IMG/VR virus record: IMGVR_UViG_3300039412_000400
Span: 1 to 53,143 of that record
Strand: one strand, 5' to 3'
Length of the DNA stretch: 53,143 bases
From: a virus
Taxonomy: Duplodnaviria; Caudoviricetes
The position numbers and the translations under genes are program-made. The notes under the pieces were generated by a model. The model did no database searches. It saw only the letters and a list, made by a program, of their open reading frames with translations, and was not told the DNA's origin. Shown here piece after piece: positions 9,761 to 33,706 of the stretch (the stretch's first letter is position 1; every line of letters begins with the position of its first letter).

Positions 9761-9794
9761 GGCCCTCGTGGTAAAAAATCACGAGGGCTTTTTT
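9761..9794 (+). terminator. Rho-independent terminator ending the replication module
   Basis: GGCCCTCGTGG-taaaaaa-TCACGAGGGCT followed by a T run. Confidence 0.9.
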
Positions 9795-9948
9795 GTGCCA
9801 AAAAATTGGCATATGTTTGACATAATACTACATGGTAATATTTTTGCAATATAATGTAATAAATACGGGCTCGCCAATAAAAAACAGAATAAGGTATCAA
9901 TATTCCTCTATTTAAGATAGGATATAATTCTGTGCAACAGGAGACATA

Positions 9949-10539
9949 ATGTCGAAATTTAGTTTAGATTACTCAGATCTGGCAAACAAAATCGTTAAGA
10001 GAGCATATCGTCTGTCAGACGTTAAAGATCAATTAGAAACCGTAGCTTTCGACATAGTTCGTTTCAAGGATGCCGATAAAGGTGCCGAGCTATGGCAAGT
10101 TCAGAGCGCTGATGATGGCGATTATATTGTCGCTCTATATGATGATACATCAGAGGCCGAGCTTGAAAAGACGGCCGGTAAAGCTAAAGAATGCAACTGC
10201 GGTCATGATAAGAGAGAGCACAAGGATGATGGATGCACAAAATGCAAACATTGCAAAAAGTTTAGGCCATTATCTGATGAGATCTCTGAAGAAGAAATGA
10301 AGGAGTGGGGCGTAAAATCCACGAAGAATGGTAGCTTCTTACAAATCTCTTATAAGGGAGACCCCATTATCAAGATGTCTTCTGCACAACTTGGCATTCC
10401 ACAAAATGAACTACACCTGGCAGAGCACTATTTGCCAGAAAAATTAGCGACAAATAAGTCGCTGGTTAAAGCGCTTCTAAAAGAGCTGAATGATATTGCG
10501 CGCTCAGAACTTTTTAAGAGATATCCAGAACTGGTTTAA
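9949..10539 (+). CDS. Hypothetical virion-module protein with a Cys/His-rich insert
   Basis: GGAG SD; CNCGH...H...CTKCKHC follows EKTA. Confidence 0.75.
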   Translation: MSKFSLDYSDLANKIVKRAYRLSDVKDQLETVAFDIVRFKDADKGAELWQVQSADDGDYIVALYDDTSEAELEKTAGKAKECNCGHDKREHKDDGCTKCKHCKKFRPLSDEISEEEMKEWGVKSTKNGSFLQISYKGDPIIKMSSAQLGIPQNELHLAEHYLPEKLATNKSLVKALLKELNDIARSELFKRYPELV

Positions 10540-10556
10540 CGGAATATAAGGTGAAC

Positions 10557-12164: not shown

Positions 12165-12181
12165 AACGCGAGGTCGAAGTA

Positions 12182-13252
12182 ATGAGAATCGAAAACATTG
12201 GAAGGATATTGGCAATAAAGTATGCCCAACAACTTCCATCTAATATAGATAAGCAAGGAGTTCTTGAAGACATTGCAAGAGATGTCAAGGGTGCGTTGCA
12301 GTCTTATGTTTTCGATACCACATCAAAAAATCCTATTATTCAATATTTAGATAGACGAGGTTATGGTGGAACAATTGATCTTTTTGTTAAATATCTAATT
12401 AGCGAATCACTGACACTATATACAAAGATAGATGAATTAATAAAAGAGCCAGTTCAAGATCGTCTTCTTATGATTATGATGAATATTAAAAACGATATTC
12501 TTCAGGGTAAAAAAGCTGTTGTTGAGGCATTAAAACATTCTCTAAAATTAAATAATGAATCATCGCGTAATGAAGCAAATAGACTTGCAAGTAAATTTGA
12601 CATTACTGTGACTAACTTAGCAGATAATTTAACTCGAAAAGGTAGAATAGTTTATAAGTATTGCTCTCCAGAGTTCCAAGAGATTGCTGCAGATATAATA
12701 AAAGCCAAGGTTGAGTCGCAAAGAATGCCACTTACAAAAATGCAGCTTTTCATTTTTGCACATACGCCAGTTGCAGAAAAATATGGGCTTACATCTATTG
12801 AGATTTTGCAGAGACTTCTAGAAGATCCTGAAATGCGTGAAAAACTAACAACAGTTATCAATGCAGTTCATAGGGGGCATAATTTTCCAAAGAATGGGCC
12901 AGAAATTTTGGAAGAAGCGCAGGCAATAGCAAAACGAATGCAAATGCAACAGCCAAATAAAACTCTTGAGCTACCAGAAGGTGATTTTAGAGAGGCTCTT
13001 AATGTTTTTGTAGATCCTGCTGAGCGTGCATCGCATGTTGGCGTAGATGCTAAAAAACGTTTAGAAGAAGAGCGAGCTATTGAATCTGGCGGTCCAGAAG
13101 GCTCCGGTGAAACAGAAACTATGAGTCCAGAAGAACTTGAGCAAAAAATTCAAGAACGAGATGAGCTTGCAAGAAAAAACCAAGAACAACTTAACAAACC
13201 AAATAAGGAAAGAAGTTTCCTTCTTGATCAACTTTTGAGGATGAACCGATGA
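12182..13252 (+). CDS. Hypothetical protein
   Basis: GAGG SD; N-terminal IKYAQ motif. Confidence 0.7.
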   Translation: MRIENIGRILAIKYAQQLPSNIDKQGVLEDIARDVKGALQSYVFDTTSKNPIIQYLDRRGYGGTIDLFVKYLISESLTLYTKIDELIKEPVQDRLLMIMMNIKNDILQGKKAVVEALKHSLKLNNESSRNEANRLASKFDITVTNLADNLTRKGRIVYKYCSPEFQEIAADIIKAKVESQRMPLTKMQLFIFAHTPVAEKYGLTSIEILQRLLEDPEMREKLTTVINAVHRGHNFPKNGPEILEEAQAIAKRMQMQQPNKTLELPEGDFREALNVFVDPAERASHVGVDAKKRLEEERAIESGGPEGSGETETMSPEELEQKIQERDELARKNQEQLNKPNKERSFLLDQLLRMNR

Positions 13253-13962
13253 GAACCGCAGAATTATTACAAGCTATGGCTTCATGGCTAGAAAGCCCAA
13301 ATAATGAAGCAATGTTATTGGCCGAGAATGATGAGAAGGCACTTAAGGTTGTTGCCGAATCTTGTGTTCTTGCTGCGGCATTACTAAAATCCGCCGCTGA
13401 AGAAGTTGATTTAATCGAGCCACAGCCCGAATCACTTCTTACACCAGAGGCAATTGAACAGACCGCTGCAATTGCTACCGCGTTTGATGCATCTGGTGAT
13501 CCACAACTAAAAAAGATGGCATCCGTTTTGGATGAACTTCTGCTTACAATTGCGGCTCCACCAAACGCACTCGCTCAAATCAAGCAAGCCGAAGATGACA
13601 GAATTGAACAGCTTCGTAAGAGATATGAACAACCACGCAAAGATCTACATGAATACAACAAGATAGGCGTTTCTGAACAGGCAATTGATAAGAGTAATTT
13701 TGCGAAGCCTCAGACAATAAATGAACGTCCGCTACAAACTCGCACATGCCCAGATCATCCGGGAGCACAGATGTCAAGAGTTGGCGAGCACATGTTTCAG
13801 TGTGATTTAGATAAGAAGCAATACAATTATGAAACTGGATATACTTTAGAGAACGGCGAGCACGTGCCAGGCGGATCGGTTGATTTGCAAACCGGTGATC
13901 AGAATACTCCATTCCATGCGATTTTTGATACAAGACAAGGGCGATTGGGCTACAATAGCTAA
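13249..13962 (+). CDS. Hypothetical protein with a C-terminal CPDH...C metal-binding motif
   Basis: Coupled ATGA start; LQTRTCPDHPG...FQC. Confidence 0.75.
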   Translation: MRTAELLQAMASWLESPNNEAMLLAENDEKALKVVAESCVLAAALLKSAAEEVDLIEPQPESLLTPEAIEQTAAIATAFDASGDPQLKKMASVLDELLLTIAAPPNALAQIKQAEDDRIEQLRKRYEQPRKDLHEYNKIGVSEQAIDKSNFAKPQTINERPLQTRTCPDHPGAQMSRVGEHMFQCDLDKKQYNYETGYTLENGEHVPGGSVDLQTGDQNTPFHAIFDTRQGRLGYNS

Positions 13963-14030
13963 TATTCACTTTTGCTAACTATCTATAATATTGTATCTAT
14001 TTTGACGTATTATTTTATACAAAGGTCAAA

Positions 14031-14789
14031 ATGAACAAAACTGTAGTCCGTAAGATACTTGACCATCCTGATAGGGATGAGATAGTTAATAAGCTAATGT
14101 TAGATATTCCAGAGAGCGATATCAATGAGTGGCTTGCGGAAAAATATACAAACGTTAATGAAGCAAAGTTTGTATTAACCGAGAAAAATATTAAAGCATT
14201 TAAGGATAATTATTTAGACATTTATAGAACAATTCAAGACGATATGCACAAAACAAAATTGGCTGTTGTCAATAATGCAGAAGAGCAACTGGATTTGGCC
14301 GTCAAAAATAATCCGGCTTATAAGAGCAAGATTATGGAAGCTGTTGGTAAAGAGATTGACGTTCGCCAAATGGTTGCACATTTATGTGCTGCTATTGAAA
14401 TTCGTGTTGGACAGGTTTTTGATGAAATTCAGAATGATCCAAGAAATATTAATACCAAAGTTGACCGCCTCCTAATTGATTATGCCGAAGTTCTTGGCAC
14501 TATTTTAGAAAAGTATTACAAGTTTACAGAAAATCCTGCAGACCAAGTTATACAACATAATGTAACATTACAGGTTGTAGATCAGCACGTATTGCTTGTT
14601 CAAGAATGTATTCGTGAAGTTTTGCAATCTTTGGACCTTGAGAGTTCTATGTTGTTCATGGATCTATTTACAGAAAAAATGGCCAAGCTTAAGCTGCCTG
14701 CGCCAGAATCTGTAATGAACTCTGATACTAAGCTTGCTGAAGCAAAGGTCTTAAGCGAAACCATTAACAAAAAGCTAAATAGCAAATAA
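14031..14789 (+). CDS. Hypothetical protein, candidate terminase small subunit
   Basis: N-terminal HPDRDEI...INEWL HTH-like segment plus helical oligomerisation-like region, in the packaging module. The function is inferred. Confidence 0.35.
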   Translation: MNKTVVRKILDHPDRDEIVNKLMLDIPESDINEWLAEKYTNVNEAKFVLTEKNIKAFKDNYLDIYRTIQDDMHKTKLAVVNNAEEQLDLAVKNNPAYKSKIMEAVGKEIDVRQMVAHLCAAIEIRVGQVFDEIQNDPRNINTKVDRLLIDYAEVLGTILEKYYKFTENPADQVIQHNVTLQVVDQHVLLVQECIREVLQSLDLESSMLFMDLFTEKMAKLKLPAPESVMNSDTKLAEAKVLSETINKKLNSK

Positions 14790-14793
14790 AGAT

Positions 14794-16689
14794 ATGTCAA
14801 TAATAGATAAGCCATCAAAAAAACAATTAGAAAAATGGATGCATGATTGGATTGCACATGAATCTCCAGAAACGCCAGAAGAAGACGAGCGCGCCCGGAA
14901 GATTATTGAGTTTTTTGAGCAATATGGCATCACATTTGACAAGTTTAATCCAAAGAACTTTTCTATTTTTGATTCCACGGCATATCCCAATTATGATCAG
15001 TATGCTTATATACCAGGACAACACGATGTTAGAAAATGGCTTATGGCAGTTAAGAATATGCAATATATGCAAAAATCTGGTATGCCATATCGAGAAGCTA
15101 TTCGTGAATCAACCAAAGGCTGGAAGAAAATGGAAATCTATGATTTCCTAAATTGGCTAAAATATTATGAAGAAGGCACTCATATGAAATACAAATTTGC
15201 TCAATCTTATTATGTAAATGATTCTATGCCAGGATATTTTGTTCCAATTAGGCAGGACGTATCAAATGCAGATGACGTTGCTCCAGCTGATTTTGAGGCT
15301 GACCAACAAGCCGCACAGGAAAAGGAAGAAAAGAAACAAATCATCGCTCAACAGCGCAAAAAGATTCTAAGCAGACTTGACTCTATTAGAAAAATGTTGC
15401 GTTCAGAAGATGGCCGCACATTTGCCGGTGATGAACTTGAAACATTATTAGAGGCTATTCACACTTTAGAGAAAAAAATTAGCACATTAAACAAATTGAG
15501 CACGTCAATTCGTCTTTATGAAGATATGATTGTTCGTGAAGCTAATGTTCTTTACAGTAAAGGATTTAATAAGGCGGCTGATGCGCTATATACCGCAGCA
15601 CAAACGCCAGGAGCATCAGGGCAACAATTATCAAAAGGCCCACAAGCAGAACAAGATGCCCCGCCTCCATCAGCTCCACCTCCATCAGCGCCACCTGCAA
15701 TACCATCTGGCGAAGGCCAGACAGGAAGCTCTGGAGCAGTAAATGAAACACCAGCTGGAGTTGGCGCTCCAAATCCACAGTCACCGTCGGGTGGTGCAGA
15801 AACAACGCCAGAATCAAAGGGCCAAGAAATAGCTGTTGAAGATCCGCAGCCAATCGGTATCAAACAATTTATTGATGCAATGAATGGCCAAGAAGGAAAA
15901 ACAATAGAAGAAGAACATGCGACCGATGATGATTTAGAAGTTGAAGATGCCGATGATCAATTATTGGTTACAGAAGCGCAGGCTTTACCACCAAGACCAC
16001 CAGAAGCTGTTATGGAAGATTTGCCATTAACAGATGATCCTGCGCCCGCAAGAGGCAAACCAGCACAACTTCCAAGAGATCCGTTCATTGCAAAAGCTCC
16101 AGCTACAAAACCAGCAGTTCCATTTACTATGGATGAAGAGCCGCTGGAAGTTACTGAAGACGATCTTGAAACTCCAAAAGAAAAAGAAGCAGATAATGTT
16201 ATCCCAACAACCTCTAATTTTGACGTTAAAATAGATAAGGTTCTTGCCAGTGTAACTTTGGAAGATATCGTTTCAGAACTTGAAGATTTGGCAAAAGTAT
16301 TTAAGGTTAGGGAGATTCCACGAAGATTGGCGCTTGTTGATGTAATGTTAGATAGCAAGGGGCTTGCCTCATTCTTCCCACAATTATCTGAAGCCCAGAA
16401 TAAGAGTCTTGAAAGCAATAACTATATCTCAACTCGTATTGAAGATATACTTGCAAAGTTGCGCGGTGCCCTTGAAACAAAAGATATCGATCTTGAAGGT
16501 AAAGAACAGGAAGCAGCAGTAGATGCTTCTGGAGTTAAAGCCAAGTTACAAGAAGATGCCGCAAAAGAACAGCAACGAAAACAACAGCGTAAAGAACAGT
16601 CAGAAGCTGAATTGGCTACTCCCGAAAAAGAAACTCCAGAAATAGATATGGGCGAACTGGCAGGCCCAGTCGCAAGACCAATAGGTTGA
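14794..16689 (+). CDS. Large acidic/Pro-rich hypothetical protein, possibly head-internal
   Basis: 631 aa with Pro-rich and acidic linkers; carries KFAQ and ANVLYSKG motifs shared with other head-module proteins. Confidence 0.7.
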   Translation: MSIIDKPSKKQLEKWMHDWIAHESPETPEEDERARKIIEFFEQYGITFDKFNPKNFSIFDSTAYPNYDQYAYIPGQHDVRKWLMAVKNMQYMQKSGMPYREAIRESTKGWKKMEIYDFLNWLKYYEEGTHMKYKFAQSYYVNDSMPGYFVPIRQDVSNADDVAPADFEADQQAAQEKEEKKQIIAQQRKKILSRLDSIRKMLRSEDGRTFAGDELETLLEAIHTLEKKISTLNKLSTSIRLYEDMIVREANVLYSKGFNKAADALYTAAQTPGASGQQLSKGPQAEQDAPPPSAPPPSAPPAIPSGEGQTGSSGAVNETPAGVGAPNPQSPSGGAETTPESKGQEIAVEDPQPIGIKQFIDAMNGQEGKTIEEEHATDDDLEVEDADDQLLVTEAQALPPRPPEAVMEDLPLTDDPAPARGKPAQLPRDPFIAKAPATKPAVPFTMDEEPLEVTEDDLETPKEKEADNVIPTTSNFDVKIDKVLASVTLEDIVSELEDLAKVFKVREIPRRLALVDVMLDSKGLASFFPQLSEAQNKSLESNNYISTRIEDILAKLRGALETKDIDLEGKEQEAAVDASGVKAKLQEDAAKEQQRKQQRKEQSEAELATPEKETPEIDMGELAGPVARPIG

Positions 16690-16694
16690 AATGA

Positions 16695-18758
16695 ATGAAA
16701 CTGCGAGAACTTTTTCAAGAACTAACTGAAGTCCAAAAAGAACTTGGCATTGCCCCAGTTCTTATATGTGGTGGTACAGCCAGAGATAAATATATGGATA
16801 AGTTAGAGAATATCTCTGATGTCGATTTGACCAATGGCGAAAAGACAATGGATTATTTGTCTCAAGAGCTTGTTATTCAGTTAAGAAAAAAATATAATGT
16901 TACACGCAAAATTCATAAAGATCATAGCACAATTTTTGTTGGTAAATTAAAGTTAGACTTTTCTTCCAATTTTATGGTCCCCAATATAGACGCCATATTA
17001 GCAAAACTTGGTGTTACAAATCCGACTGATTTGCAAAGAGAAATGTATTCAAGAGATTTTACTTGTAATTCGTTGTTATTAACTCTTGATCTTAAACAGA
17101 TTTTAGATCCGACAAAACGTGGTGGCCAAGACATTGATGCAAAGAAAGTTAAGACATGTTTGGCCCCTGAAATAACTTTGGTTTCATATAAGAACAGAGT
17201 TATAAGAGCAATTTATCTTGCTTGTAAATTAGGGTTTGATATAGATGACAGTATTATTGAATATGTTCTAAAAAATCCGGCATCTGCCAAAATAGCAACT
17301 GAAAAAACTGTTATTGATAAACTTAATGCCGCTTTTGATAAAGATGCAGATAGGGCAAGTTATTATCTAACAAAAATGAATATTTGGAATCAGGTTCCAA
17401 TTATTGAAAAGGCCGCCCCATATTATAATCAAAGTCTAAAGAATACAACAAAATTGGCCTATTATCAAGGCGGTGGCGGCGTTAATGAACCAACGCCAGG
17501 AAAACCAAAATATGATGTTGATCCTGCAATTGTTGTTCAGCCTCATTTTGAGGAACCGTTCTATTACAATTATGATTATTTAGACACGGAAGGCATTGAT
17601 GGACAGCCACAATACGGTCCAGGAAGTGGCTGGGCGCATATGAACGAGTTCAAGAGTATAAAGGATTTTCTTGACTTCAGGCGCAAAAGATTAAAAAACA
17701 AGTACGTGGCTGACGACTCGTACATTGATGACTCGTCCGCAAATTATAAAGAACGCGTAGATAAGATGAAAATTCGGGCCAGTCTTTTATCCAAAATTAT
17801 AAAGACTGCAAAAAAAGAAGAACCAGAAACAGTTCCAGTTATCGAGCCAGATAATAATTGTTTTTTCTATGCAGCTATTATTGCTGCGCTTAATCCAAAG
17901 CTTAAGCTTATGAAGGGCCGACATACGGGACAACATAAAGAAGATACTGCACATTTTTGGGTTGAAAGTGAAGATGGAAAAATTACAGATCCAACCGCCT
18001 CTCAATATAAAGAAGGCCATGTTGAAGACGGAAAGCAGATAGATGTTCGTAAGAATATTGATGCAATTACTGGGCATAAGCTATTTTCATCATTACCAGA
18101 AAAATATCAAAAAAGAATTAAAGCTTTAAGTAAAGACGAAAATGATGGCCCCAATTTTGATTATGGTTCTGGCCTTTATATGAATATGGATAAATATAAA
18201 AGCATTAAAGATTTTGAGAAAAATAAACCAAAAGGCCAAGGCGCATTTTATAATGATGACAACAATATAGATTTTCCTGTTGATATTCAATCAGATACGA
18301 CGGCAGAATCACAAGCCGGCCCCATTCTTGGAGATTCAGAAACCTATCTTAAACCGGCTGTTATTGGTCCGTCTGTAGATGGAAATCCAAATGATGGAAT
18401 TATTCCAGGTTCCGTTGGTCTTGGTGATTTTACGACATATCCGCAGTCTAATCAATTAAGCGGATTCATGGATAGTTCTTTGCCACAGAACGATTTTGAG
18501 GGCAAACCACCGACAGAGCTTGATTTTGGAAGAGATTATACAGAAGATGTGGAGTTTCCCGGAACTCTTAATGAAGATGATTTAGAATCGCTTGAACATA
18601 AGTATCTAACACCGTCTGAAACTGACCTATTTGGCTTGCCAGATGGAATAGATCCAATTTCTGATGAAGACGCCGATGTTACTGTAAATAATAAGAATAC
18701 ATATTATGGAACTCCCGATACTGGAAGACAAATGTATGAAGATAAATGGAATATATGA
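16695..18758 (+). CDS. Class II CCA-adding/poly(A) polymerase-family nucleotidyltransferase with a long C-terminal extension
   Basis: CGGTARD, catalytic DVD, SRDFTCNSL, DPT.RG..DI and R.IRA...A.KLGF. The ~430-aa extension contains a Cys-His-Asp domain and a scaffold-like peptide. Confidence 0.85.
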   Translation: MKLRELFQELTEVQKELGIAPVLICGGTARDKYMDKLENISDVDLTNGEKTMDYLSQELVIQLRKKYNVTRKIHKDHSTIFVGKLKLDFSSNFMVPNIDAILAKLGVTNPTDLQREMYSRDFTCNSLLLTLDLKQILDPTKRGGQDIDAKKVKTCLAPEITLVSYKNRVIRAIYLACKLGFDIDDSIIEYVLKNPASAKIATEKTVIDKLNAAFDKDADRASYYLTKMNIWNQVPIIEKAAPYYNQSLKNTTKLAYYQGGGGVNEPTPGKPKYDVDPAIVVQPHFEEPFYYNYDYLDTEGIDGQPQYGPGSGWAHMNEFKSIKDFLDFRRKRLKNKYVADDSYIDDSSANYKERVDKMKIRASLLSKIIKTAKKEEPETVPVIEPDNNCFFYAAIIAALNPKLKLMKGRHTGQHKEDTAHFWVESEDGKITDPTASQYKEGHVEDGKQIDVRKNIDAITGHKLFSSLPEKYQKRIKALSKDENDGPNFDYGSGLYMNMDKYKSIKDFEKNKPKGQGAFYNDDNNIDFPVDIQSDTTAESQAGPILGDSETYLKPAVIGPSVDGNPNDGIIPGSVGLGDFTTYPQSNQLSGFMDSSLPQNDFEGKPPTELDFGRDYTEDVEFPGTLNEDDLESLEHKYLTPSETDLFGLPDGIDPISDEDADVTVNNKNTYYGTPDTGRQMYEDKWNI

Positions 18759-18804
18759 ATTATTTCGTATATAAACACGTAAAAAATGTATGAGGTAACC
18801 TAAC

Positions 18805-19773
18805 ATGACATTAAAAGCTAATGCACAGGAACAATTTACTATTTCCCCAGTTTCTCCGGCATCACAATTGCCTGCCGCAGATACGCACTTTGCAGATGGG
18901 CCATCTTTTGAGGTGGTTGAGGCTCCTGAAATCATAGATTTATTAGAACAAGGCCAGCATGATGGTTTGCCTATTGAAGTTGCAGATCAAGAAGCTCCGC
19001 TTGAAGTTGAAATCACCATTGGAAGACTTCCAGGTGCCCCAGATGATTCGCCAGAGCCACAGCCTCCAATTGAGGTTAGTGAAGAGCCAATTGACGTAGA
19101 AGATCAAGAAAAACCAGAAGACGCAAATGATGCAAAAAAGGGCAAGAATGATAAATGGAACTGGTCAAAACATGGGCCAACTGGATTTATTGCCTGGATT
19201 AAAGAACGTATTGATAACGTTCCAAGGCATAGCGGATTAGACACCGCAGGGCTTGAAAGAGCACAAGCTTATCTTGAAAAACTTGATAGCGAAATCTCAA
19301 AAGCCATGAGAATGGATTTGGATGAAGAATTAGACGCAAATCAGATTGAAAAAGTTCGAGCACAAATTGATGATGGCATTGCAAGACTTAATGCTCGTCT
19401 CGAAAAGGTTAAGAAAAACAAGAAATCTGTTCGTAGAAAGAAGTCAGAGTACGAATATGATGAAGACGGTTTTGTTAAAGAAGCGCAAAAAATTACTGGC
19501 GTTCAAGGAATTTTCGTTACCGTTCCACTTATGATTTCAAGTCTTGCCAGAACATGTATTAATGGTATGGTTTCTGCCGGTCACGATATTGAAAGAATGT
19601 ATGGCGATCAGGTTCAGAAATATAAACTTAATGACAGGGAACAGCTAGAATTACGTCAATGTCTATGGGATATGGGATATCCAATGCGCATTGATATGGG
19701 CGTTCAACCAGAAGAAGATCTTGAAGTTTCCGATAGTGATAATTATAACTGGGCCACAAACTATAAGGCATAA
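18805..19773 (+). CDS. Hypothetical acidic protein
   Basis: GAGG SD; KANAQ, DANDA and VKEAQ motifs. Confidence 0.75.
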   Translation: MTLKANAQEQFTISPVSPASQLPAADTHFADGPSFEVVEAPEIIDLLEQGQHDGLPIEVADQEAPLEVEITIGRLPGAPDDSPEPQPPIEVSEEPIDVEDQEKPEDANDAKKGKNDKWNWSKHGPTGFIAWIKERIDNVPRHSGLDTAGLERAQAYLEKLDSEISKAMRMDLDEELDANQIEKVRAQIDDGIARLNARLEKVKKNKKSVRRKKSEYEYDEDGFVKEAQKITGVQGIFVTVPLMISSLARTCINGMVSAGHDIERMYGDQVQKYKLNDREQLELRQCLWDMGYPMRIDMGVQPEEDLEVSDSDNYNWATNYKA

Positions 19774-19775
19774 AT

Positions 19776-20471
19776 ATGAACAAACTTTCACGACATCAGC
19801 CAGTTGTTCAGAGACAATCTGAATCTGACGATAATGGTGATCATTGGCTTAAAGAGTTTGAGAATAAGCTCGTTAAAACTAGCGTTCAACCAATTCAGAG
19901 AAGCTTATTCGATCAGATTAGCTCTATTATGAATGGCAGCTCCAAATATTCTTCTGTTCAAGAAAAAGTTAATGATATGCTTGAACGAAGTGGTATGAAG
20001 GCATATATTGATGGTGTAAAAGCAGCTGAACAAAATAAACAAGATAATAAAAAAGTTGCACAACAGATACCTGCCCCAAAACAAACGACACCTGCTGCCG
20101 CCGATGATAATAATGCCAAGAAATCAGATAAAGACGGTAAACAGGTTACAGTTTTAGTGTTTCAGCAGAAGCCTACCATTGCAAATACATTGCGCAATAT
20201 TATCGAATCTTCACGAGGAAATCTTCCAATACCAACCATTATTGATAAACTACACTCTCTTCATCAAAAAGATATTGCAGATGATAATGACTGGGATGAT
20301 GATAATTTAATTCGTGAAGTTAGTAGGCTAAATCTCGAAGCAAAATGCAATAATCCATCAAGTTATGAAGACGATCATGATCTTGGTAGAGCGGATAGCT
20401 CCACTGCTGATTCTGATATTGACGCAAGTAATACAGATGCATTCCACGCGCTTGATACTGCCAGAATGTAA
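19776..20471 (+). CDS. Hypothetical protein
   Basis: Starts 2 nt after the previous stop; KKVAQ and ADDNNA motifs. Confidence 0.75.
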   Translation: MNKLSRHQPVVQRQSESDDNGDHWLKEFENKLVKTSVQPIQRSLFDQISSIMNGSSKYSSVQEKVNDMLERSGMKAYIDGVKAAEQNKQDNKKVAQQIPAPKQTTPAAADDNNAKKSDKDGKQVTVLVFQQKPTIANTLRNIIESSRGNLPIPTIIDKLHSLHQKDIADDNDWDDDNLIREVSRLNLEAKCNNPSSYEDDHDLGRADSSTADSDIDASNTDAFHALDTARM

Positions 20472-20522
20472 AAAAATAAATTGTATATGGGCGTAAATAC
20501 TAATATTTTTGTATGATCTGTT

Positions 20523-22403
20523 ATGAAAACAGAAAATCAAGATCTATTTAGTGAATTCAAGGAAAGACTTCTTAGACTTGATTGTGTGACTTTTTGTGAA
20601 AAATATCTTACTTTAGATGGCTCACCTTTTACGCTGAGTGGGAATGGTTATAAACCCTTCAGTGAGATATACCGATATGTCGGAATTAAGGCTCTTGAGC
20701 CAAGTGCCAAGCCAATTATTATGGTTAAAGGACGTCAGACCGGTGCAACAACAATGGCCTCTGCTCTTGAAATGTATTTCATGGGTAGTGGCCTTTTTGG
20801 TGGCAATAGTGGCCGCCCACCAATTAGAATTATTCATGCTTTTCCACAATTAGAGCATGCCGCAACATACTCAAAGACCAAACTAAGCCAAATGATTTCG
20901 CAGTCAAAAATCATGGATGAAAGCAAAATCGTTAAAGGCGCTCGCCCAAAGTCATATATGCAGAGTCTTTTAGACCAGACAACCGCCACAAATGAATCTT
21001 TGCACTTTAAGCAATTTGTTGGCGGAAACCACTTATTCATTGAATCAACTGGCATTGACTCTGATAGAATCATGGGCCGAACAGCCGATATTCTTTTTTT
21101 TGATGAGGTTCAGAAAATTAGCCCACAGGCCATTGGTAATGCACTTAAAATTTTGACAGCTGCAAAGTATGGCAAACCCTCAAAAGGTGTCCAGGTATAT
21201 TTTGGAACTCCAAGACGTAAAGGCTCAGAGTTCTTTAAGATGTGGCAGAAATCTTCACAGCAATACTACTATCTTGGCTGCGAGAGTTGCAGACAATACT
21301 TCCCGCTTTATACTCCGGGAACAGATGAATGGGAAAAGATTTGGATTCATGGCTACATCGTTAGATGCCCGCATTGTAATCACGAACAAAATAAGTTAGA
21401 AGCAGCCGAGCGTGGCAAGTGGATTTCGACAAAAGATGTAGATGATCCAGATTGTGATATGGTTGGATTCCATATTAATCAACTTTATATGCCAATGTTT
21501 ACAAGAGAAGACATTGAAAAAGAAAAGCCGGGTAACCATCCAATTAATACAGAACGAGTTTTCCAGAATGAAGTTCTTGGAGAGTTTTTCCAGGGAGATT
21601 CGAGTCCTATTACGGCTGATGAAATCAGGGAAGCTTGCGGCGATATTGGAAGACGTTTTAGTGCAACGATTAAATCTACACCGGGACTAACACAGCAAAC
21701 TGCAGTTCTTGGTATTGACTATGGTGCAAGAGCAGACCTTGAACAAGCGGCAGATCCAGAAAAAGCAAAGCAATCTGGCCAATCATATAGCACGGCAGTT
21801 GTTCTTTTGAGCAAGGGTCCGGGGTTATTATCTATCGAGTTCTGCACAAAATTTAAGAAAAACGATCCAGAAAGCAAAAAGGGAATTATTGACCAACTAA
21901 TGAGACAATATAATATTCAGTTGGCAGTTGGAGATATTGGATACTCAAATGACTTCTCATATAATATGCAGATGGCATATGGCGACAGATATCTTGTTTC
22001 ACGTGCAGCTGGCAAACTAAATAACTACGTCAAGTTCAGAACAGACATTATCCCCAAGGAAATACAGTTTGAGCGCGATCATTATATTGCCGAACTATTT
22101 GAGCAAATGAAAAAGGGAATGATTCGATTCCCATTTGGTGATTATGAGCGTATTGCATGGCTTGTTGATCACTGCTCAAGCATGGAACTTAAACCATCTA
22201 TTTCGCGCACAGGCGGAGATCCTGTTGTCCATTATGTTAAGGGAGGCACTCCCAATGACGGATTTATGGCACTGCTTAACGCCTATTTGGCTTATAAGTT
22301 TTTGGTAAGTAAAGGTTTTACAAATAAAGATCCTGGAACCAACTCACTTGATGATCTAAATAAACCTTTAGTTTTAGCAGGATATGTGCCAAGACGAATC
22401 TAA
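20523..22403 (+). CDS. terL: Terminase large subunit (lambda GpA-like)
   Basis: Walker A-like KGRQTGATT, Walker B FFDEVQ, FGTP, a CxxC...CxxC insert, GFHINQLY, NEVLGE, and nuclease GIDYG ... NDG. Confidence 0.92.
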   Translation: MKTENQDLFSEFKERLLRLDCVTFCEKYLTLDGSPFTLSGNGYKPFSEIYRYVGIKALEPSAKPIIMVKGRQTGATTMASALEMYFMGSGLFGGNSGRPPIRIIHAFPQLEHAATYSKTKLSQMISQSKIMDESKIVKGARPKSYMQSLLDQTTATNESLHFKQFVGGNHLFIESTGIDSDRIMGRTADILFFDEVQKISPQAIGNALKILTAAKYGKPSKGVQVYFGTPRRKGSEFFKMWQKSSQQYYYLGCESCRQYFPLYTPGTDEWEKIWIHGYIVRCPHCNHEQNKLEAAERGKWISTKDVDDPDCDMVGFHINQLYMPMFTREDIEKEKPGNHPINTERVFQNEVLGEFFQGDSSPITADEIREACGDIGRRFSATIKSTPGLTQQTAVLGIDYGARADLEQAADPEKAKQSGQSYSTAVVLLSKGPGLLSIEFCTKFKKNDPESKKGIIDQLMRQYNIQLAVGDIGYSNDFSYNMQMAYGDRYLVSRAAGKLNNYVKFRTDIIPKEIQFERDHYIAELFEQMKKGMIRFPFGDYERIAWLVDHCSSMELKPSISRTGGDPVVHYVKGGTPNDGFMALLNAYLAYKFLVSKGFTNKDPGTNSLDDLNKPLVLAGYVPRRI

Positions 22404-22456
22404 AATACTCTTGATATAGTATCTTTATAGCATTGTATTAGGAATGATGAGGACTT

Positions 22457-24364
22457 ATGGGTTTAATTAAAAGATCAGGTTTGGGAAATGATGCGTCGTT
22501 TTCTGCAAGATATTTAGAAAATAGATCTACAGTGCCGCAAGTCAGTGCAATTATGGCCAATAGTATTTCGCAAGAAAGACGCGTAATTCTATCAGATGAG
22601 GTTGAGCAGGGCCGATTTATGGACGGTTCTCAGAGCTACAGCTATCTAAACGGCCGCCCCAACGTCGGAACAGATAATGGAAACGTAATTTGTTCTGTTG
22701 GTTTTAAGAAAAATGCCCAGTCTTTTGGTGGTGGTGGTGGTGGTGGTGGCGGTTTTAATCATGGCATGTCTGGTGACACAATTAAACAGATGCCAGAAGT
22801 TTATTCTCCGCTTTGGTTAAATAGTAATCTTAATATGCCACGAGATCGTGCGACTATAAATGCATGGTGTCGTTCATTTTTTGCGCTTAATCCATTTGTT
22901 CATAATGCAATAAGCCTTCACTCTACATATCCTATTAGTAAATTATCAATCAAATGTCCAAATAAAGATATTGAAAAGTTCTTTAATGATATGATTGAAG
23001 AAATTGATCTTATGAATATTTGTGTCCAGATTGCACAAGAATATTTCCTTCTTGGTGAGGCATTTGTATTTGCAGAGCTAGATGAAGGAAAAGGTAAGTG
23101 GGGAAGACTTCATATTCAGAATCCCGACTATATGATTGTTAAGCGTACAGTGGCAACTAGTGAGCCTATTATTATGTTAAGACCAGATGAAAATCTAAAG
23201 AAAATCATTTTCTCAAATCGTCCAACAGATATTGAACAACGCAAACAACTTAATCAGCACATTATCGAGTCAGTAAGACGTGGAGAAAATATTCCTCTTG
23301 ATAATTTTAACATCTCTCAATTGGCAAGAAGAATCAGCCCTTACGAGATTAGAGGAACGGGTCTTCCAGTTTGTATTTTCCGTCAATTAATGCTTTTTGA
23401 CAAGCTTCGTGAATCAAAGTTTGCACAAGCAGATAATATGATTAATCCTTTAACTGTTGTTAAGATTGGATCAGCAGATTTTAAGCCATCACTTGCGGAT
23501 CTTGAAGCCTGGCGCGCGACTTTTGAAGCAGCCGAATATGATAAGGATTTCAAGATTTTTACTCATGAGGGCGTTGACATTCAGAGAATTGGCTCTGGAC
23601 AAGGTATCTATGACATCTCTGGTGATATAACCCAGCTAATTAAAGAAATTTTAATTGGTCTTGAAGTGCCGCAGGTAATGCTTGATGGTGGCTCTGACAC
23701 AACATATGCCAATGGTGGCGTTGCTTTGGACGTATTGCGCCAGCGCTACATGCAATTCCGTAATATGATGTCAACATGGCTCAAGCGTAAGATTTTTGCT
23801 CCGATATCGAAGATTCAGGGCTTCTTTGATTATTCTGGTGGAGAAAAGCAGCTAATTGTCCCGGAAATTGACTGGAACCATATGTCACTATTTGATGCCG
23901 GTGACTATGTTAATAATCTTGTTCAGTTAAGTCAAGGCGGGCCAGATCAGAAGAGAGTCTCTCTACATACTCTTTATCGCTCTATGGGTCTTGAGATTGA
24001 AGACGAAAATCGAAAGATGCGTCAAGAGAATATTCAGGCAGAGATTGTTAAGAAGGAAGTTTCCGCTCTCGCGACAATGACACTTAACGCCCTACGTTCG
24101 TTGGATGATGAGGATGAGATTCCAGAGCCACCAGCACAGGTTGCACAGCCAGAAGCACCACTTCCAGGTGAAACTCCAGGTGGAGCGGGCGGCGGAATGC
24201 CAGACCTTGGACTTGGAGGAGGTTCCGCGCCTTCAATACCACCTATGCCGCCAAATAGTGGCGGTAGTTCGGCGCCTCCATCGCCTACACTTCCAACGCC
24301 CCCAATTAGCTCTAAACCAACAGGCGAATCTGCGGCACTACCGCCTCTTCCTCCAACTAAATAA
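22457..24364 (+). CDS. Portal protein
   Basis: Follows terL. NPFVHNAI..HSTYP, EYFLLGEAF, QNPDY, RGTGL, GLEVP and ANG..AL are portal-like motifs; Pro/Gly-rich tail. Confidence 0.85.
   Translation: MGLIKRSGLGNDASFSARYLENRSTVPQVSAIMANSISQERRVILSDEVEQGRFMDGSQSYSYLNGRPNVGTDNGNVICSVGFKKNAQSFGGGGGGGGGFNHGMSGDTIKQMPEVYSPLWLNSNLNMPRDRATINAWCRSFFALNPFVHNAISLHSTYPISKLSIKCPNKDIEKFFNDMIEEIDLMNICVQIAQEYFLLGEAFVFAELDEGKGKWGRLHIQNPDYMIVKRTVATSEPIIMLRPDENLKKIIFSNRPTDIEQRKQLNQHIIESVRRGENIPLDNFNISQLARRISPYEIRGTGLPVCIFRQLMLFDKLRESKFAQADNMINPLTVVKIGSADFKPSLADLEAWRATFEAAEYDKDFKIFTHEGVDIQRIGSGQGIYDISGDITQLIKEILIGLEVPQVMLDGGSDTTYANGGVALDVLRQRYMQFRNMMSTWLKRKIFAPISKIQGFFDYSGGEKQLIVPEIDWNHMSLFDAGDYVNNLVQLSQGGPDQKRVSLHTLYRSMGLEIEDENRKMRQENIQAEIVKKEVSALATMTLNALRSLDDEDEIPEPPAQVAQPEAPLPGETPGGAGGGMPDLGLGGGSAPSIPPMPPNSGGSSAPPSPTLPTPPISSKPTGESAALPPLPPTK
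22727..22753 (+). repeat. (GGT)7-GGC-GGT trinucleotide run encoding Gly9 in the portal
   Basis: Read directly from the sequence. Confidence 0.9.
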
Positions 24365-24374
24365 GTAAAAAAAT

Positions 24375-24794
24375 ATGAGAAAATGTAGAATCTGTAATAT
24401 TGAACTTACTAATGAAAATACTCATAATTATACAACAAAACAGCACCGCATATGTAAAGAGTGCGAAAGAAAGAGAAAAAATGATAAAAATTATAAAGAC
24501 AAAATCGCCCTTATAAAAGAATATGGCGGAAAATGCGTTTGTTGTGGAGAATTTGAGCCTATTTTTCTGACTATAGATCATATAAATGAAGATGGAGCTA
24601 AACATAGAAAAGAAAATGGCATATATGCTGGCGCAAGTTTTTATAGATGGCTTAAACAACAAGGATATCCAAAAGATAATTATCAAGTTTTATGTTTTAA
24701 TTGTAATTTTGCAAAACATGTATTAGGTAAATGTCCTCATCAACTCCCACCAGCAGGAGGCGCACCACCGCCACCCCCACCGCCAGCAAAATAA
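24375..24794 (+). CDS. HNH homing endonuclease with a Pro-rich tail
   Basis: YGGKCVCCGE...LTIDHI..DG..HR...YQVLCFNCN.AK...CPH. Confidence 0.88.
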   Translation: MRKCRICNIELTNENTHNYTTKQHRICKECERKRKNDKNYKDKIALIKEYGGKCVCCGEFEPIFLTIDHINEDGAKHRKENGIYAGASFYRWLKQQGYPKDNYQVLCFNCNFAKHVLGKCPHQLPPAGGAPPPPPPPAK

Positions 24795-30097: not shown

Positions 30098-33000
30098 ATG
30101 ACTGGGTTTATAAAACAAGGAGAGGCGCTAGAAATTAAGTTAGAAGATACTGCCTCTTGTATTCCAGAAGTCAGCGAAGAGATTTTGGAAGTCTTTAGAA
30201 AGACCGCTGCCGAACTTAAAAAAATCGCCCCAAAGGCTGATGATTTTTTGTATTTTAGTGCAACCATTATTCATGCTGCCGAAGCTTCTGCGCTTAATGA
30301 TGACGGAACACCTAAACTAAATCTTAAAGGTGAGGCCGTTAAGGTTGGTTGGGATACAAGCAATGATACCTGGAAATGGGTAACAAACGATCCGAATATT
30401 AAGCCATATAAGAACTCAAATGGCGATATTTTTCCAGAAGCAGAGCTAAAAAAAGCATATAAAAAGTGGCAACACAAACCGCTCTGCGTTGATCACAAAT
30501 CAAGCTCCGTAGATCATACGAGAGGATTTATTGTTGATACATATTACGACCGTAATCTAAAGAGAGTCGTTGCATTATGCGCATTAGATAAGGCCAACTA
30601 TCCAGAGCTTGCACGAAAGATTTCAACCAAGATGCAAACTGCAGTTTCAATGGGAACAGCAGTTGGCAGAGCCATTTGTTCAGATTGTGGCAGAGTCGCT
30701 CGCATAGAGTCCGACTTTTGCAAGCATATGAAGGACAAAACATGCTATGGTGAAATTAATATTGATCTAAATCCTATTGAGTTATCTATTGTAGTAACTG
30801 GAGCAGATCCAAAAGCACATATTAAACAAATTATTGCCGCAGCCAATACTATGAATACCTATTTAGAGAATAGGGCTAATGAATTAAAGAAATTAGCAGA
30901 ATATTCGGCAACTATTATAAAGAGTAATGGCGAACCGGGAAGCACGGTTAGACAGCAACAGTCTGTTGATGTGCATGGCAGCGATATTGAGGCTTTTAAG
31001 CAAGAAATTGATAGGGCACTTAAAGATTTAGATGAATTGAACGAAAATATTACAGAAAATACTAATAGTTCTGCATCTAATCAATCGTCGGGTTCGATTG
31101 CCCAGGATGAAGACGTGCCAGTTAGTGAAAATCCGGCCCTTCAACCGCCACCCGCAAGGCTTGCATCTGCTGACAATATACGTGAAGAGTCCGTATCTGA
31201 CTTTTATAAGGTCGCATCAGAAATTGAATCAAAACTAACTCAAATGAAAATAAGTTTGGATAAGTTATCACAAAATCTTTCTATTAAAACACAAGAGGAA
31301 AATATGTCTGGAACAGAAATCAAAAAAGAAGGTTACTATCAGGGCGCCGGTGGCGTAAACGAACCAACCCCAGGTCAAGTTAAGTACCCAAAGGATGGGC
31401 TTAACGAACAACTTCGTGAGAAGGAAGATAAACACATGACAGGCCAACCTCCTTTCCCAGAGGTAGGATCTGTTGATGGTATGCATCCATCTCCCGCATC
31501 AGTCGATCCGTCTGATGAATTGCAGCGCAAAAAGATGCTCGCTCGTGCGGAGTTAGAAGACCGTCAAATAAAGCGTGAAGCAATTGTGCAAACTGCCAAG
31601 GAAGCATTAGGCTACTGGAATGGTGGCGGTGGCGTTAATGAGCCAACCCCAGGCAAACCAAAGTATCCCAAGGATAAACTCAATGAGCAGCTTCGTGAAG
31701 ACGAAGATAAACAAATGGTTGGGCAGCCCCCATTCCCGGGTGTTGGCGCAGTCGATGGTTTGCATCCATCACCAGCATCTGCTGATATCAAGGATGAACT
31801 AAAACGTAAGGAAATGCTCGCTCGCGCTTCTCTAAAGGCACGTTTTAGCAAGGTAGCAAATAGTGATGGTAGCCTTAATAAGGCAGCTAGCGCATGGAAC
31901 GTTTATCTTGGCGACAAGCTTATTCTAACTGCATCCGTTTCCGATCTATGCAGCGGTAATGTTAATGATGTTCTTTATGACAGCATTGCCACCAAGCCTT
32001 TTGGTATTCAGCTAATCGAAAAGATTAAGGCTAATGGTGTAGATGCCGTTTCCAAGCTAATTAAGAAAGCACAGCCAATGCCTCCTCCAGGCGGTGATGC
32101 TCCTCCTCCAGTCGGTCCAGATATGGGCGCTCCTCCTCCAGGCGGTCCAGATATGGGCGCTCCTCCTCCAGAAGCTGGGCCTCCAGTTCCAGATACAGGA
32201 AAGACTGGCGATCCAAAGCAGACTGCTCTTAAGATGGCAGAAGACATGGTTTCCATGGCATCAGATTTACTCGAAGCTATTCGCGCACTAACTGGCGAAA
32301 AGGCAGAGATGGGCGAAGAAGGGCCAGAGGGCACCTCGGCTCCAGAAGGCATGTCTGCAAAGAGTGCGTCTGATAAGTTTAGTGCAAATACCCTATATTC
32401 CTTGAGAAAGGAACTTAATGGTGCGCTAACTCAAGCCATGAAGGAATCTCTTGCAGAGATTGACAATAGTCGTAAAGAATTAGAAATGATTGCCGGAATG
32501 TATGATGAAGGTTCTATCAATGATAGCAACTCAGACCTTACAGACTCGCTCATTCAAGATTCAATTAATGAAGCAAAGACTGCTATGGCAGACGGATTTA
32601 AGCTTATGACTGCTTTTGTTAAATATGCTCGCGGTACCAAGGCCATTATCAAGCGTGCAGAAGTTGAAGCAGGACTTCAATCACTTGCGGCCGAAGGAGA
32701 ACCCGAAATGAACGATGATGATACCAACCTCGCAGATCTACTCGATCAGAATAACGCAGATATTGATGAACTTGCCGGTCTATTAGCAGACGACGGTGAA
32801 GCAAAAGATAAAGATATAGGCGATCCACTACTCGAAGAGCTACTTTCAAGTGAGCTTTTAGCTGATGACGCCAATGATCTACAGGTTGATCCTGCAGGAT
32901 TAGATAAGCTACAAAAGGATCCAAATGCAAAGATAACTGTTGCATCTTACGATTCAAGACTTGGACGTCAGGCTCTTAGAGCAAAGCTTGCTGCTGATGC

Positions 33001-33706
33001 AACAGGCAAAGAGGAAGACGGAGAGATTCATGACATGTCAAGTCAGAAGTTTAGCGATATGCTTGATCAGGCTGATAAACTCACAAACGGACAGACCAAG
33101 CTTGATGTAAAGCCATCTGATAATCTTGGCTATGTTGAAACGCTTCCAGAAGTTAATGATGCTATGATGGATCTTGCAAAGGCTCCACCAAGTGTTAGAA
33201 AAGATGCAGCTGCTCTTAATCAGCTCATCAAGGAAGGTAAAGTTGATCCAGCAGACTTTGATGATCTAATTGCTCAGGGTCTTGATAAGGAAGCAGTTTC
33301 TTACTGGAAGAAATATTACGGTGAAGTTGAAGGCGGAAGCGAATTCGCCAGTGAACTTGTCAAGGAACATGTTAAGGCCGCTATGGCAGAGGAACTCAAT
33401 AAGTTTAAGGTTAAGCTAGCCCGCGCCTATGAGACCGCCTATGATATGGCAGACCGTGGTATGTGCAAGAGTGATAGAAACACTATCTCGACACAGGTTG
33501 ATGAAATCATGAAGTTTAGTGATGAAAACTTTGAGTCTCTCAAGAGAATCATTGCAAATCATGAACCAATCATGCGCAAAGAAGCAAATCGTATTCCACA
33601 AGTTGGATACAGAAGCGACAGTGAAATGACGGTAACGGCAGCAGTCGAGAGTGATGAGTTCTCAAAACTATCATCTGCCTTCGGAACCAAAAAGGGTTTG
33701 TTCTAA
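30098..33706 (+). CDS. Prohead maturation protease fused to a scaffold/core region
   Basis: N-terminal NSNGDIF...EL...PLCVDH...RGFIVD...VSMGT...ELSIV..GADP.A (HK97/herpes-fold phage proteases), followed by ~900 aa of acidic, coiled-coil, Pro-rich sequence. Confidence 0.75.
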   Translation: MTGFIKQGEALEIKLEDTASCIPEVSEEILEVFRKTAAELKKIAPKADDFLYFSATIIHAAEASALNDDGTPKLNLKGEAVKVGWDTSNDTWKWVTNDPNIKPYKNSNGDIFPEAELKKAYKKWQHKPLCVDHKSSSVDHTRGFIVDTYYDRNLKRVVALCALDKANYPELARKISTKMQTAVSMGTAVGRAICSDCGRVARIESDFCKHMKDKTCYGEINIDLNPIELSIVVTGADPKAHIKQIIAAANTMNTYLENRANELKKLAEYSATIIKSNGEPGSTVRQQQSVDVHGSDIEAFKQEIDRALKDLDELNENITENTNSSASNQSSGSIAQDEDVPVSENPALQPPPARLASADNIREESVSDFYKVASEIESKLTQMKISLDKLSQNLSIKTQEENMSGTEIKKEGYYQGAGGVNEPTPGQVKYPKDGLNEQLREKEDKHMTGQPPFPEVGSVDGMHPSPASVDPSDELQRKKMLARAELEDRQIKREAIVQTAKEALGYWNGGGGVNEPTPGKPKYPKDKLNEQLREDEDKQMVGQPPFPGVGAVDGLHPSPASADIKDELKRKEMLARASLKARFSKVANSDGSLNKAASAWNVYLGDKLILTASVSDLCSGNVNDVLYDSIATKPFGIQLIEKIKANGVDAVSKLIKKAQPMPPPGGDAPPPVGPDMGAPPPGGPDMGAPPPEAGPPVPDTGKTGDPKQTALKMAEDMVSMASDLLEAIRALTGEKAEMGEEGPEGTSAPEGMSAKSASDKFSANTLYSLRKELNGALTQAMKESLAEIDNSRKELEMIAGMYDEGSINDSNSDLTDSLIQDSINEAKTAMADGFKLMTAFVKYARGTKAIIKRAEVEAGLQSLAAEGEPEMNDDDTNLADLLDQNNADIDELAGLLADDGEAKDKDIGDPLLEELLSSELLADDANDLQVDPAGLDKLQKDPNAKITVASYDSRLGRQALRAKLAADATGKEEDGEIHDMSSQKFSDMLDQADKLTNGQTKLDVKPSDNLGYVETLPEVNDAMMDLAKAPPSVRKDAAALNQLIKEGKVDPADFDDLIAQGLDKEAVSYWKKYYGEVEGGSEFASELVKEHVKAAMAEELNKFKVKLARAYETAYDMADRGMCKSDRNTISTQVDEIMKFSDENFESLKRIIANHEPIMRKEANRIPQVGYRSDSEMTVTAAVESDEFSKLSSAFGTKKGLF
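31334..31828 (+). repeat. Two ~72-aa internal repeats, 279 nt apart, in the scaffold region
   Basis: YYQGAGGVNEPTPG...GQPPFP.VG.VDG.HPSPAS.D..DEL.RK.MLARA occurs at 31334 and 31613. Confidence 0.9.
32099..32171 (+). repeat. 30-nt tandem repeat (APPP[VG]GPDMG), about 2.4 copies
   Basis: gctcctcctccag[t/g]cggtccagatatgggc is repeated. Confidence 0.9.

Follow-up and report, generated by a model that had tools for sequence, protein, structure and literature searches.

We analyzed a 53,143-base viral contig (IMG/VR record IMGVR_UViG_3300039412_000400, positions 1 to 53,143), referred to below as the window, whose CheckV completeness of approximately 12% points to a genome several hundred kb long. 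The open reading frame (ORF) at 16695..18758 encodes a 687-amino acid protein in which a mini class II nucleotidyltransferase (NTase) is followed by a tail that is disordered and rich in motifs. It lies on the + strand, as do the ORFs at 14794, 18805, 20523, 22457, and 30098 described below. The NTase head and neck occupy residues 1–252 (16695..17450) and are followed by tail module 1 (residues 253–372, 17451..17810), a window-specific insert (residues 373–480, 17811..18134), and tail module 2 (residues 481–687, 18135..18755). Class II NTases are the textbook example of a protein side-chain template, an Asp and an Arg that choose nucleotides without nucleic acid. In our judgement the chances are evenly balanced that the window protein is a mini class II NTase, diverged and active, that does not add CCA and that is carried on a disordered adaptor, probably tied to the assembling capsid core. 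Homologs of the NTase were found on contigs of up to 511 kb. Close homologs numbered 154 at E<=1e-3, and the 104 proteins among the best 120 of these that contain both NTase and tail are the close homologs to which the column counts below refer.

The N-terminal domain matched the Pfam family PF01743 (PolyA_pol) with an E-value of 5.8e-9 and 36.8 bits against a cut-off of 23, and an AlphaFold model built on 79 homologs gave block-mean confidence values (pLDDT) of 84–97, mostly above 90, over residues 1–250. When this model was compared with solved structures using VIA-align, a Z score of 18.6 was obtained both for the A-adding enzyme of Aquifex aeolicus (4wby; root-mean-square deviation 3.4 Å, 210 aligned residues) and for the CCA-adding enzyme of Thermotoga maritima (3h3a_A; 2.9 Å, 209 aligned residues), followed by the CC-adding A. 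aeolicus chains of the 3wf series (Z 16.2–16.7) and the Escherichia coli poly(A) polymerase (PAP) chains of the 3aq series (Z 13.3–14.0). The Foldseek and VIA matches cover residues 1 to approximately 255 of the model and correspond to the first 230 to 340 residues, approximately, of chains that are 344 to 517 residues long. We are confident that residues 1–252 constitute a class II NTase consisting solely of head and neck. The protein lacks the tRNA-holding body and tail domains, which in class II enzymes recognize the helices of the acceptor and T arms and fix the elbow of the tRNA (as described in parts of PMC3925840).

Most catalytic motifs of the class were found in place. In motif A, GGTARD (residues 26–31, 16770..16787), G26, G27, R30, and D31 are present in 100 of the 104 close homologs, the other 4 being gapped. 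Both Asp residues of the catalytic D42-x-D44 motif (DVD, residues 42–44, 16818..16826) occur in 103/104 with 1 gap, and in a wider set of 151 aligned representatives, described below, D42 and D44 are Asp in 136 and 135 sequences, with 13 to 14 gaps. The third catalytic carboxylate, D88 on the strand KLDFS (16956..16958), is conserved in 104/104 and aligns with the Glu of KLEFATAR in 4wby. Motif B, S119-R-D-F-T-C-N125 (17049..17069), is invariant in all 104 and lies under RRDFT(V/I)N and RRDLTIN of the solved enzymes. It thus reads SRD in place of RRD (S119 in 104/104 close homologs and in 134/151 of the wider set, gaps included), in the context E116-x-x-S119-R-D instead of DxxRRD. The basic-x-acidic (BxA) motif that precedes the flexible loop was not found at the aligned place in the HMMER alignments or the homolog columns, where a gap follows SSNF. 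A remnant of motif E, D208-K209-L-N-A-A-F214 (17316..17336), aligns with ER-V-G-E-E-I of 9ns4; among the close homologs this position 208 is Glu in 97/104 and K209 is present in 104/104. R120-D121, N125, and the motif D Arg R168 are likewise invariant in the 104. Because the catalytic residues are invariant among relatives, the predicted active site probably works and the domain is hence probably active.

The base-selecting motif D is altered. The equivalent residues S164-Y165-K166-N167-R168 (17184..17198, codons tca tat aag aac aga) fall directly under EDPLR, EDPVR, or DDPLR in 3/3 HMMER alignments printed for class II enzymes of solved structure, and by the same 3 alignments no canonical EDxxR occurs elsewhere in the NTase. 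Position 165 is Asn in 93 of the close homologs, Ser in 9, His in 1, and Tyr in 1, the window itself, so that the subfamily consensus is [ST]-N-[KR]-N-R and SYKNR is an outlier. The Tyr codon was confirmed in contigs from other runs (X2, 17133–17305, and X4, 17101–17460, with 0 differences), and because these contigs agree Tyr165 is not the error of a single assembly. Parts of 2 articles (PMC2532741, PMC3925840) describe Watson-Crick-like bonds of the motif D Asp and Arg with CTP and ATP, and cite Cho et al. 2007 for rational mutations of this pair that alter the nucleotide added. In a randomized library of the human enzyme, as reported in parts of PMC11784652, no substitution at D165 or R168 came through the selection for A- or CCA-addition, the first motif D position tolerated Asp or Gly, and this first position also varies naturally in CC-adding enzymes. 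Since Asp is replaced by Asn in the subfamily while the Arg is retained, the sequences predict a changed or loosened base choice.

To place the domain in its wider family, an exhaustive HMMER search was performed with residues 1–252, which yielded 855 representatives at E<=1e-3 and 155 at E<=1e-10. By length, the best 150 of the 855 comprise 78 proteins of 200–280 amino acids, 35 shorter ones that are likely fragments, and 37 longer ones. At the templating position the 151 aligned representatives (gaps included) have Asp in 69, Asn in 36, Ser in 12, and Gln in 6; the motif D Arg is kept in 129 and the 3 carboxylates in 135 to 136, and the more distant members retain a canonical xDPxR. A quick IQ-TREE tree with midpoint root and a canonical outgroup, for which the careful search is unfinished, assigned the window to a derived group with 32 rows (Asn 21, Asp 2), and its deep groups are nearly all Asp (28/30). 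This distribution is consistent with Asp being ancestral at the templating position. These counts also bear on whether the domain could be a catalytically dead structural module within a head- or scaffold-associated protein. The unique Tyr at the base-templating position (1/104) and the several altered canonical motifs would fit a dead domain. The near-complete conservation of the carboxylates, GGxxRD, R120-D121, N125, and R168, which are invariant where covered in the close homologs (100–104/104) and nearly so in the 151, argues against it, as does the predominance of free-standing proteins of approximately 250 residues, and we find this explanation barely credible.

A previous sequence-only reading of this DNA had presented the class II core as intact, EDxxR as rewritten to SYKNR, and ERxxxE as degraded. 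GGTARD, DVD, and RDFTCN lie where it placed them, the SYKNR substitution stands, and comparison with the structures of CCA-adding enzymes and PcnB bears out the class II fold. The core is less intact than that reading held, given SRD for RRD and the missing BxA, and motif E is altered yet partly kept, its D208-K209 aligning with ER. As for the conservation of SYKNR in phage homologs, the lack of Asp and the presence of Arg are general among the close homologs and the Tyr is peculiar to the window. The loss of body and tail, the RRD and BxA changes, the distant members with xDPxR, and the split genes described below had all been missed.

The NTase gene occupies a fixed position. It is preceded by an acidic 631-amino acid ORF without assigned function (14794..16689) and followed, in some loci after a separate tail gene, by a 322-amino acid ORF without assigned function (18805..19773), the ORF that starts at 19776, the large terminase subunit (TerL; 20523..22403; PF05876, E 1.9e-16; phrog_675, E 1.3e-52), which lies 3 genes downstream of the NTase, and the portal protein (22457..24364; phrog_16240, E 1.5e-50). 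This order of homologs was constant in 8/8 close loci and in 7/7 distant loci, the NTases of the latter being only 29–49% identical to that of the window. With its head and neck of approximately 250 residues, its SRD, its DFS(S) strand, and its slot between the 14794 and 18805 homologs upstream of TerL, the window enzyme belongs to a phage-specific family of mini-NTases kept at a fixed slot throughout a broad huge-phage lineage. In principle, such a slot could belong to a terminal transferase that acts on DNA together with the packaging machinery, for example by tailing or protecting genome ends, since it lies 3 genes upstream of TerL across distant lineages. The family-wide SRD would agree with this, RRD being described as involved in ribose recognition in parts of PMC2910056. 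The neighboring genes give no hint of end processing, which speaks against a role on DNA. In favor of such a role, work by Cho and colleagues reportedly found that mutating an arginine that contacts the ribose 2'-OH let a CCA-adding enzyme use deoxynucleoside triphosphates. We know of no class II NTase that acts on DNA ends, and overall we rate a DNA-acting enzyme as highly improbable.

One relative (L029; 395 kb, rated 100% complete) encodes, in addition to its slot NTase, a second NTase of 250 amino acids elsewhere in the record (4690–5442). The motifs of this second enzyme are fully canonical, namely RIE, DDILRRDFTVNA, and EDSLR, with DDILRRD in motif B, and its gene adjoins 2 calcineurin-like phosphoesterases, a NUDIX gene, and a kinase-like ORF, a neighborhood that may be an RNA-end repair cluster. 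Because of this canonical second NTase, the slot enzyme is not the only class II NTase of that phage. The same record shows that NTases lacking body and tail while keeping canonical motifs also occur in phages.

We then considered the class to which the window enzyme can be assigned. The score against PF01743, the 3 catalytic carboxylates with GGxxRD, and the head and helical neck fold place it in the superfamily. Among the features of CCA-adding class II enzymes it has the templating Arg (R168, 104/104) and lacks the templating Asp, the body and tail domains, DxxRRD and BxA, and a score at equivalog level. The NCBIfam models gave 47.5 against a cut-off of 290 for CCA-adding NF009814, 34.7 against 438.8 for TIGR02692, 23.3 against 1440 for A-adding NF041569, and 23.5 against 305.65 for PcnB (TIGR01942), and the C-terminal RNA-binding family of PcnB, PF12627, was not matched in the Pfam scan of the protein. 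Because there is no body or tail, Asp is replaced, SRD stands for RRD, and BxA is absent, the NTase is most likely not a CCA-adding enzyme. The strongest competing explanation holds that the enzyme stays unpackaged in the cytoplasm and matures or repairs tRNA 3' ends, with full or partial CCA addition, for phage tRNAs or against tRNA-targeting host nucleases, the tail being a regulator or linker and the gene position reflecting late expression. The retention of R168 and of most of the pocket, the xDPxR of the distant slot members (D in 69/151), and the matches to PHROG families named tRNA nucleotidyltransferase all favor it. So do the natural variation of CC-adding enzymes at the first template position (PMC11784652, in part) and the report, in general terms in the parts concerned of PMC7162821 and PMC7824862, that huge phages encode CCA-adding enzymes. 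It is harder to reconcile with the loss of the tRNA-holding domains, the loss of the templating Asp in the subfamily, the altered RRD and BxA, and scores far under every equivalog cut-off. Furthermore, no tRNA gene was found in the 53-kb window, and a complete relative has a separate canonical NTase beside phosphoesterase and NUDIX genes. We consider cytoplasmic tRNA repair possible and doubtful.

The remaining 435 residues of the protein (253–687) are mostly of low confidence in the AlphaFold model and have a layout in which a conserved module 1 is followed by a hotspot for lineage-specific inserts and a conserved module 2. Module 1 opens with the junction motif Y-Y-Q-G-G-G-G-V-N-E-P-T-P-G-K-P-K-Y (residues 256–273, 17460..17513), which is nearly invariant in 79 aligned homologs and has the general form Y-[FYW]-Q-G-G-G-G-V-N-E-P-T-P-G-x-x-K-Y. 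By BLASTP, module 1 matched a second ORF of the window with E-values of 7e-9 and 3e-7. This ORF (30098..33706) encodes a prohead protease-scaffold fusion of 1202 amino acids whose N-terminal part matched phrog_18299, head maturation protease, with an E-value of 7.7e-13. The NTase tail and the protease-scaffold protein thus have in common a module of approximately 100 residues with the 18-residue motif, and the protease-scaffold ORF holds motif and module twice (nucleotides 31334–31387 and 31613–31666). In a 6-frame translation of the window the motif occurred 3 times, at the NTase/tail junction and at these 2 places. Among 121 protease homologs, including that of the window, 97 have 2 copies of the motif, 17 have 1, and 7 have none. 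The pattern scan of viral contigs returned no protease-related loci, and protease loci were then sought in the records of known loci. A common head module is also one of the features, together with the fixed slot and the lysozyme fusion described below, that the tRNA-repair explanation leaves without explanation.

We also considered the motif as a general cleavage site of the prohead protease and rejected this, the short core Y-[FYW]-Q-G being absent from the capsid, portal, and other structural ORFs of the window. In the protease part of the ORF, C194, C197, C208, and H210 are invariant and form a possible zinc site, and H133, S135–S137, and S184 beside them are invariant as well. One protease homolog (P0448, 1566 amino acids) contains intein and LAGLIDADG Pfam domains.

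Module 2 is acidic (pI 4.05), has pLDDT values mostly below 50, and carries the short conserved motifs IDFPxD, LDFGRDY, GLPDG, and a C-terminal YEDKWNI. Because of this acidity, RNA binding by the last 207 residues is unlikely. The insert between the 2 modules is a small folded domain covered without gaps by contigs X2, X3, and X4, and most of it (residues 396–408 and 421–430) is unmatched in any of the remaining 78 aligned homologs, whose inserts at this place differ. It gave a weak YunG-like signal (PF24585, E 0.014, 16 bits against a cut-off of 27), and the Atlas search led to YunG-like clusters with TM-scores of 0.59–0.63. Cys389 lies at a helix start and His420 and Asp432 lie on strands; in the model this Cys-His-Asp arrangement looks like a papain- or transglutaminase-like triad. 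The inserts that other homologs have at the same place include Zn-ribbon-like CxxC pairs, LRV repeats, PcfJ, and DUF5661.

Module 1 is not confined to NTase fusions. Of 279 module-1 proteins, the best 120 include 35 with an NTase and 85 without, and in 70 of the latter the GGGG core begins at residues 1–16; 88 of the same best 120 end in DKWNI. In some relatives the tail is a separate gene directly 3' of the NTase gene, and these split forms show 3 junction types, 2 in which the tail gene overlaps the NTase gene by 11–17 nt and a third in which the genes are adjacent. A programmed frameshift linking the 2 parts was considered, as the ATG of the tail gene and the stop of the NTase gene overlap by these 11–17 nt in the +1 frame. 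There is no common slippery site and the third junction is simply adjacent, and the split NTase and tail are therefore read as separate, coupled genes.

Further fusions were sought with a Pfam scan of 39 long NTase relatives. Peptidase_M15_3 was detected in 2/39, and 1 of these 2 also matched Phage_lysozyme2 ("phage tail lysozyme") with 39.4 bits at a cut-off of 28.2. In the same slot lies a locus that shares 96% identity with this lysozyme fusion. Another of the 39 carries HAD_SAK ("Swiss Army Knife" RNA-repair) domains together with a polynucleotide-kinase (PNK) PHROG match, and other long relatives have PcfJ-like, LRV, or DUF5661 domains. The lysozyme fusion hints at a virion-associated polypeptide and the HAD fusion hints at RNA-end repair, the latter being a point that the tRNA-repair explanation can claim as well. 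Both hints agree with the sequence-only reading, which had inferred a virion-packaged enzyme injected at infection for RNA repair, tailing, or tagging. In the branch with DDPRR or ADPRR in motif D (P0278, P0291, P0293, P0284, P0288, and P0338), a repeated tryptophan-rich module, AKNWE.YEAQG...WK.NW.QIPG, is common to the C-terminal extensions, and the variable enzymatic domains attached to it are M15 peptidase, tail lysozyme, or HAD/PNK-like. The enzyme is here linked to another type of "carrier", unrelated to the first.

In the window, a UvsX-like recombinase, a single-stranded DNA-binding protein, and a primase, homing endonucleases, and 6 conserved ORFs without assigned function lie upstream of the NTase. 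The NTase-tail gene is followed by 2 ORFs without assigned function, TerL, portal, an SLT-domain protein, the protease-scaffold protein, and later the major capsid protein (phrog_2522, E 3.2e-78). No Pfam or PHROG match was obtained for the ORFs at 9949–16689, 18805, and 19776 except a sub-threshold MATCAP match on ORF 14031; sequence searches of the PDB with the neighboring ORFs, including 14794 and 18805, and an Atlas search with ORF 18805 returned nothing, and Foldseek found nothing at E<=0.001 for ORF 10551, whose AlphaFold model has a mean pLDDT of 67.8. Among the terminator-like hairpins of the region, the strongest (9761–9789; 12-bp stem and T run) is followed by a promoter-like site (9817–9844; TTGACA-16-TATTTT) just before ORF 9949, and from 9844 to 24500 no comparably strong terminator was found on the + strand; these are consensus matches only. 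Judging by sequence, the hairpin and promoter at 9761–9844 may mark the start of an NTase-terminase-portal transcription unit. A contig from an RNA library (X24, 208 nt, 16906–17113) matches the gene, which does not by itself indicate transcription. The sequence-only reading had placed the gene in a head operon and had seen head-module tags in the tail of approximately 430 residues. The tags are upheld by the module and motif common with the protease-scaffold ORF, and the operon holds as to the position by terminase, portal, and protease and fails to extend to the immediate neighbors, which have no assignable function. Its overall observation was confirmed and its interpretation is supported in part, by an NTase with replaced Asp in a head block joined to a head module.

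Several runs recorded as metagenomes of peat, wetland, or soil have contigs with DNA nearly identical to 16695–18758, and in 3 of these runs at least half of the sampled words are present. Homing-endonuclease-type genes lie in the window at 8441–9490, 35323–36195 (-), 37001–37834, 45293–46303 (-), and 47650–49719, and belong to HNH/endonuclease VII, GIY-YIG, and LAGLIDADG classes, the last joined to a DNA methylase fragment. The ORFs at 35323–36195 (-) and 47650–49719 are 33% identical over 278 amino acids. In relatives, homing-type genes occur at varying places, as between the 14794 homolog and the NTase in L011. The TerL ORF of L024 (10974–13829) has 951 amino acids, and its match to the window TerL is split (1–195 and 166–624) around approximately 330 extra residues, which look from the sequence like an intein or homing-endonuclease insertion. 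The window also has tandem paralogs without assigned function at 43631–44365 and 44528–45250 (80% identity over 242 amino acids).

Altogether, the reading stated at the outset would work as follows. The head would supply two-metal catalysis and the neck base selection in a template-independent enzyme, and we infer that it would extend accessible RNA 3' ends by a single nucleotide or a few, with a base choice that is altered or relaxed. The C-terminal 435 residues would form a disordered acidic adaptor, and their fusion to the NTase would most likely serve to hold the enzyme at the capsid core during assembly, leading to its packaging and delivery with the DNA. Capsid loading together with RNA-end repair or tailing is plausible because of the module in common with the protease-scaffold protein and because of the lysozyme and HAD fusions. 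We think it distinctly unlikely that the fullest version holds, in which a huge-phage lineage loads a tRNA-independent NTase by means of a scaffold-like adaptor, injects it, and tails or repairs RNA with a non-C/A template of Asn or Tyr with Arg.

Several observations weigh against this reading. Regarding base choice, an Asn template could still allow ordinary addition of C and A, since its side chain keeps a hydrogen-bond acceptor for the amino group of either base, and the unique Tyr165 might weaken rather than retune the enzyme. Regarding capsid targeting, neither the capsid nor the portal protein contains the long motif, and the common module could serve something else. In addition, tethering by module 1 cannot be general because the fusions L005–L007 lack the module and the distant relative L027 lacks any tail gene. 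The lysozyme and HAD fusions are rare (1 to 2 of 39) and occur in other subfamilies. The 4 nearest flanking genes have no assigned function, which leaves the term head operon based on position, and immediately upstream of the block are replication genes. Among deposited phages, the protein search gave a single match at 25.7% identity, the identity of the window TerL to any of them does not exceed 27%, and no cultured relative was found; a DNA-level near match of the NTase gene was likewise not found there.

If the fullest version holds, this would be the first virion-delivered phage enzyme that modifies RNA 3' ends and a natural case of a rewritten protein template. An RNA-end-modifying enzyme carried into the cell would also bear on how phages respond to tRNA- and RNA-cleaving defenses during the opening minutes of infection. 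Even a purely cytoplasmic enzyme would still represent an undescribed, widespread family of minimal NTases. In either case, a natural family without the tRNA-anchoring half, in one branch of which the Asp is swapped, offers ready variants for specificity tests. In the literature searched, which did not cover the supplementary gene tables of huge-phage papers, we found nothing on a mini-NTase family or on a packaged tRNA-type NTase.

Among known systems, the class II tRNA NTases (4wby/1vfg, 3h37–3h3a, and 3wfo–3wfs) are the closest in structure, having in common with the window protein the head and neck fold (Z 16–18.6), GGxxRD, DxD, the third carboxylate, R-D-F-T-x-N, motif C, and the motif D Arg. 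The window protein differs from them in lacking body and tail, in having Asn (family) or Tyr (window) for Asp, in SRD, in the missing BxA, in NCBIfam scores 6 to 60 times below the equivalog cut-offs, and in its fusion to a disordered phage protein. The bacterial poly(A) polymerase I, PcnB (3aqk–3aqm), belongs to the same superfamily and has the same head and neck fold (Z 13.3–14.0); PAP likewise uses EDxxR (parts of PMC2532741), whereas the window protein has an altered motif D and no C-terminal RNA-binding region. Short phage class II NTases of head plus neck are also represented by phrog_2244 and phrog_24229 ("tRNA nucleotidyltransferase"), to which the window matches are weak (E 1e-8 and 2.5e-5), and by the second NTase of L029. 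Unlike the window enzyme, the latter has RIE, DDILRRD, and EDSLR intact, and its gene is surrounded by phosphoesterase and NUDIX genes rather than placed by the terminase. For the way in which the protein may work, we take as analogs the capsid-targeted, injected phage enzymes, namely T4 Alt, the internal proteins with a capsid-targeting sequence, and MuF-linked toxins. This is an analogy of function only, and in it the likeness would lie in an enzyme joined to a morphogenesis-linked module, in variable cargo on a conserved carrier, and in a gene located in the head block.

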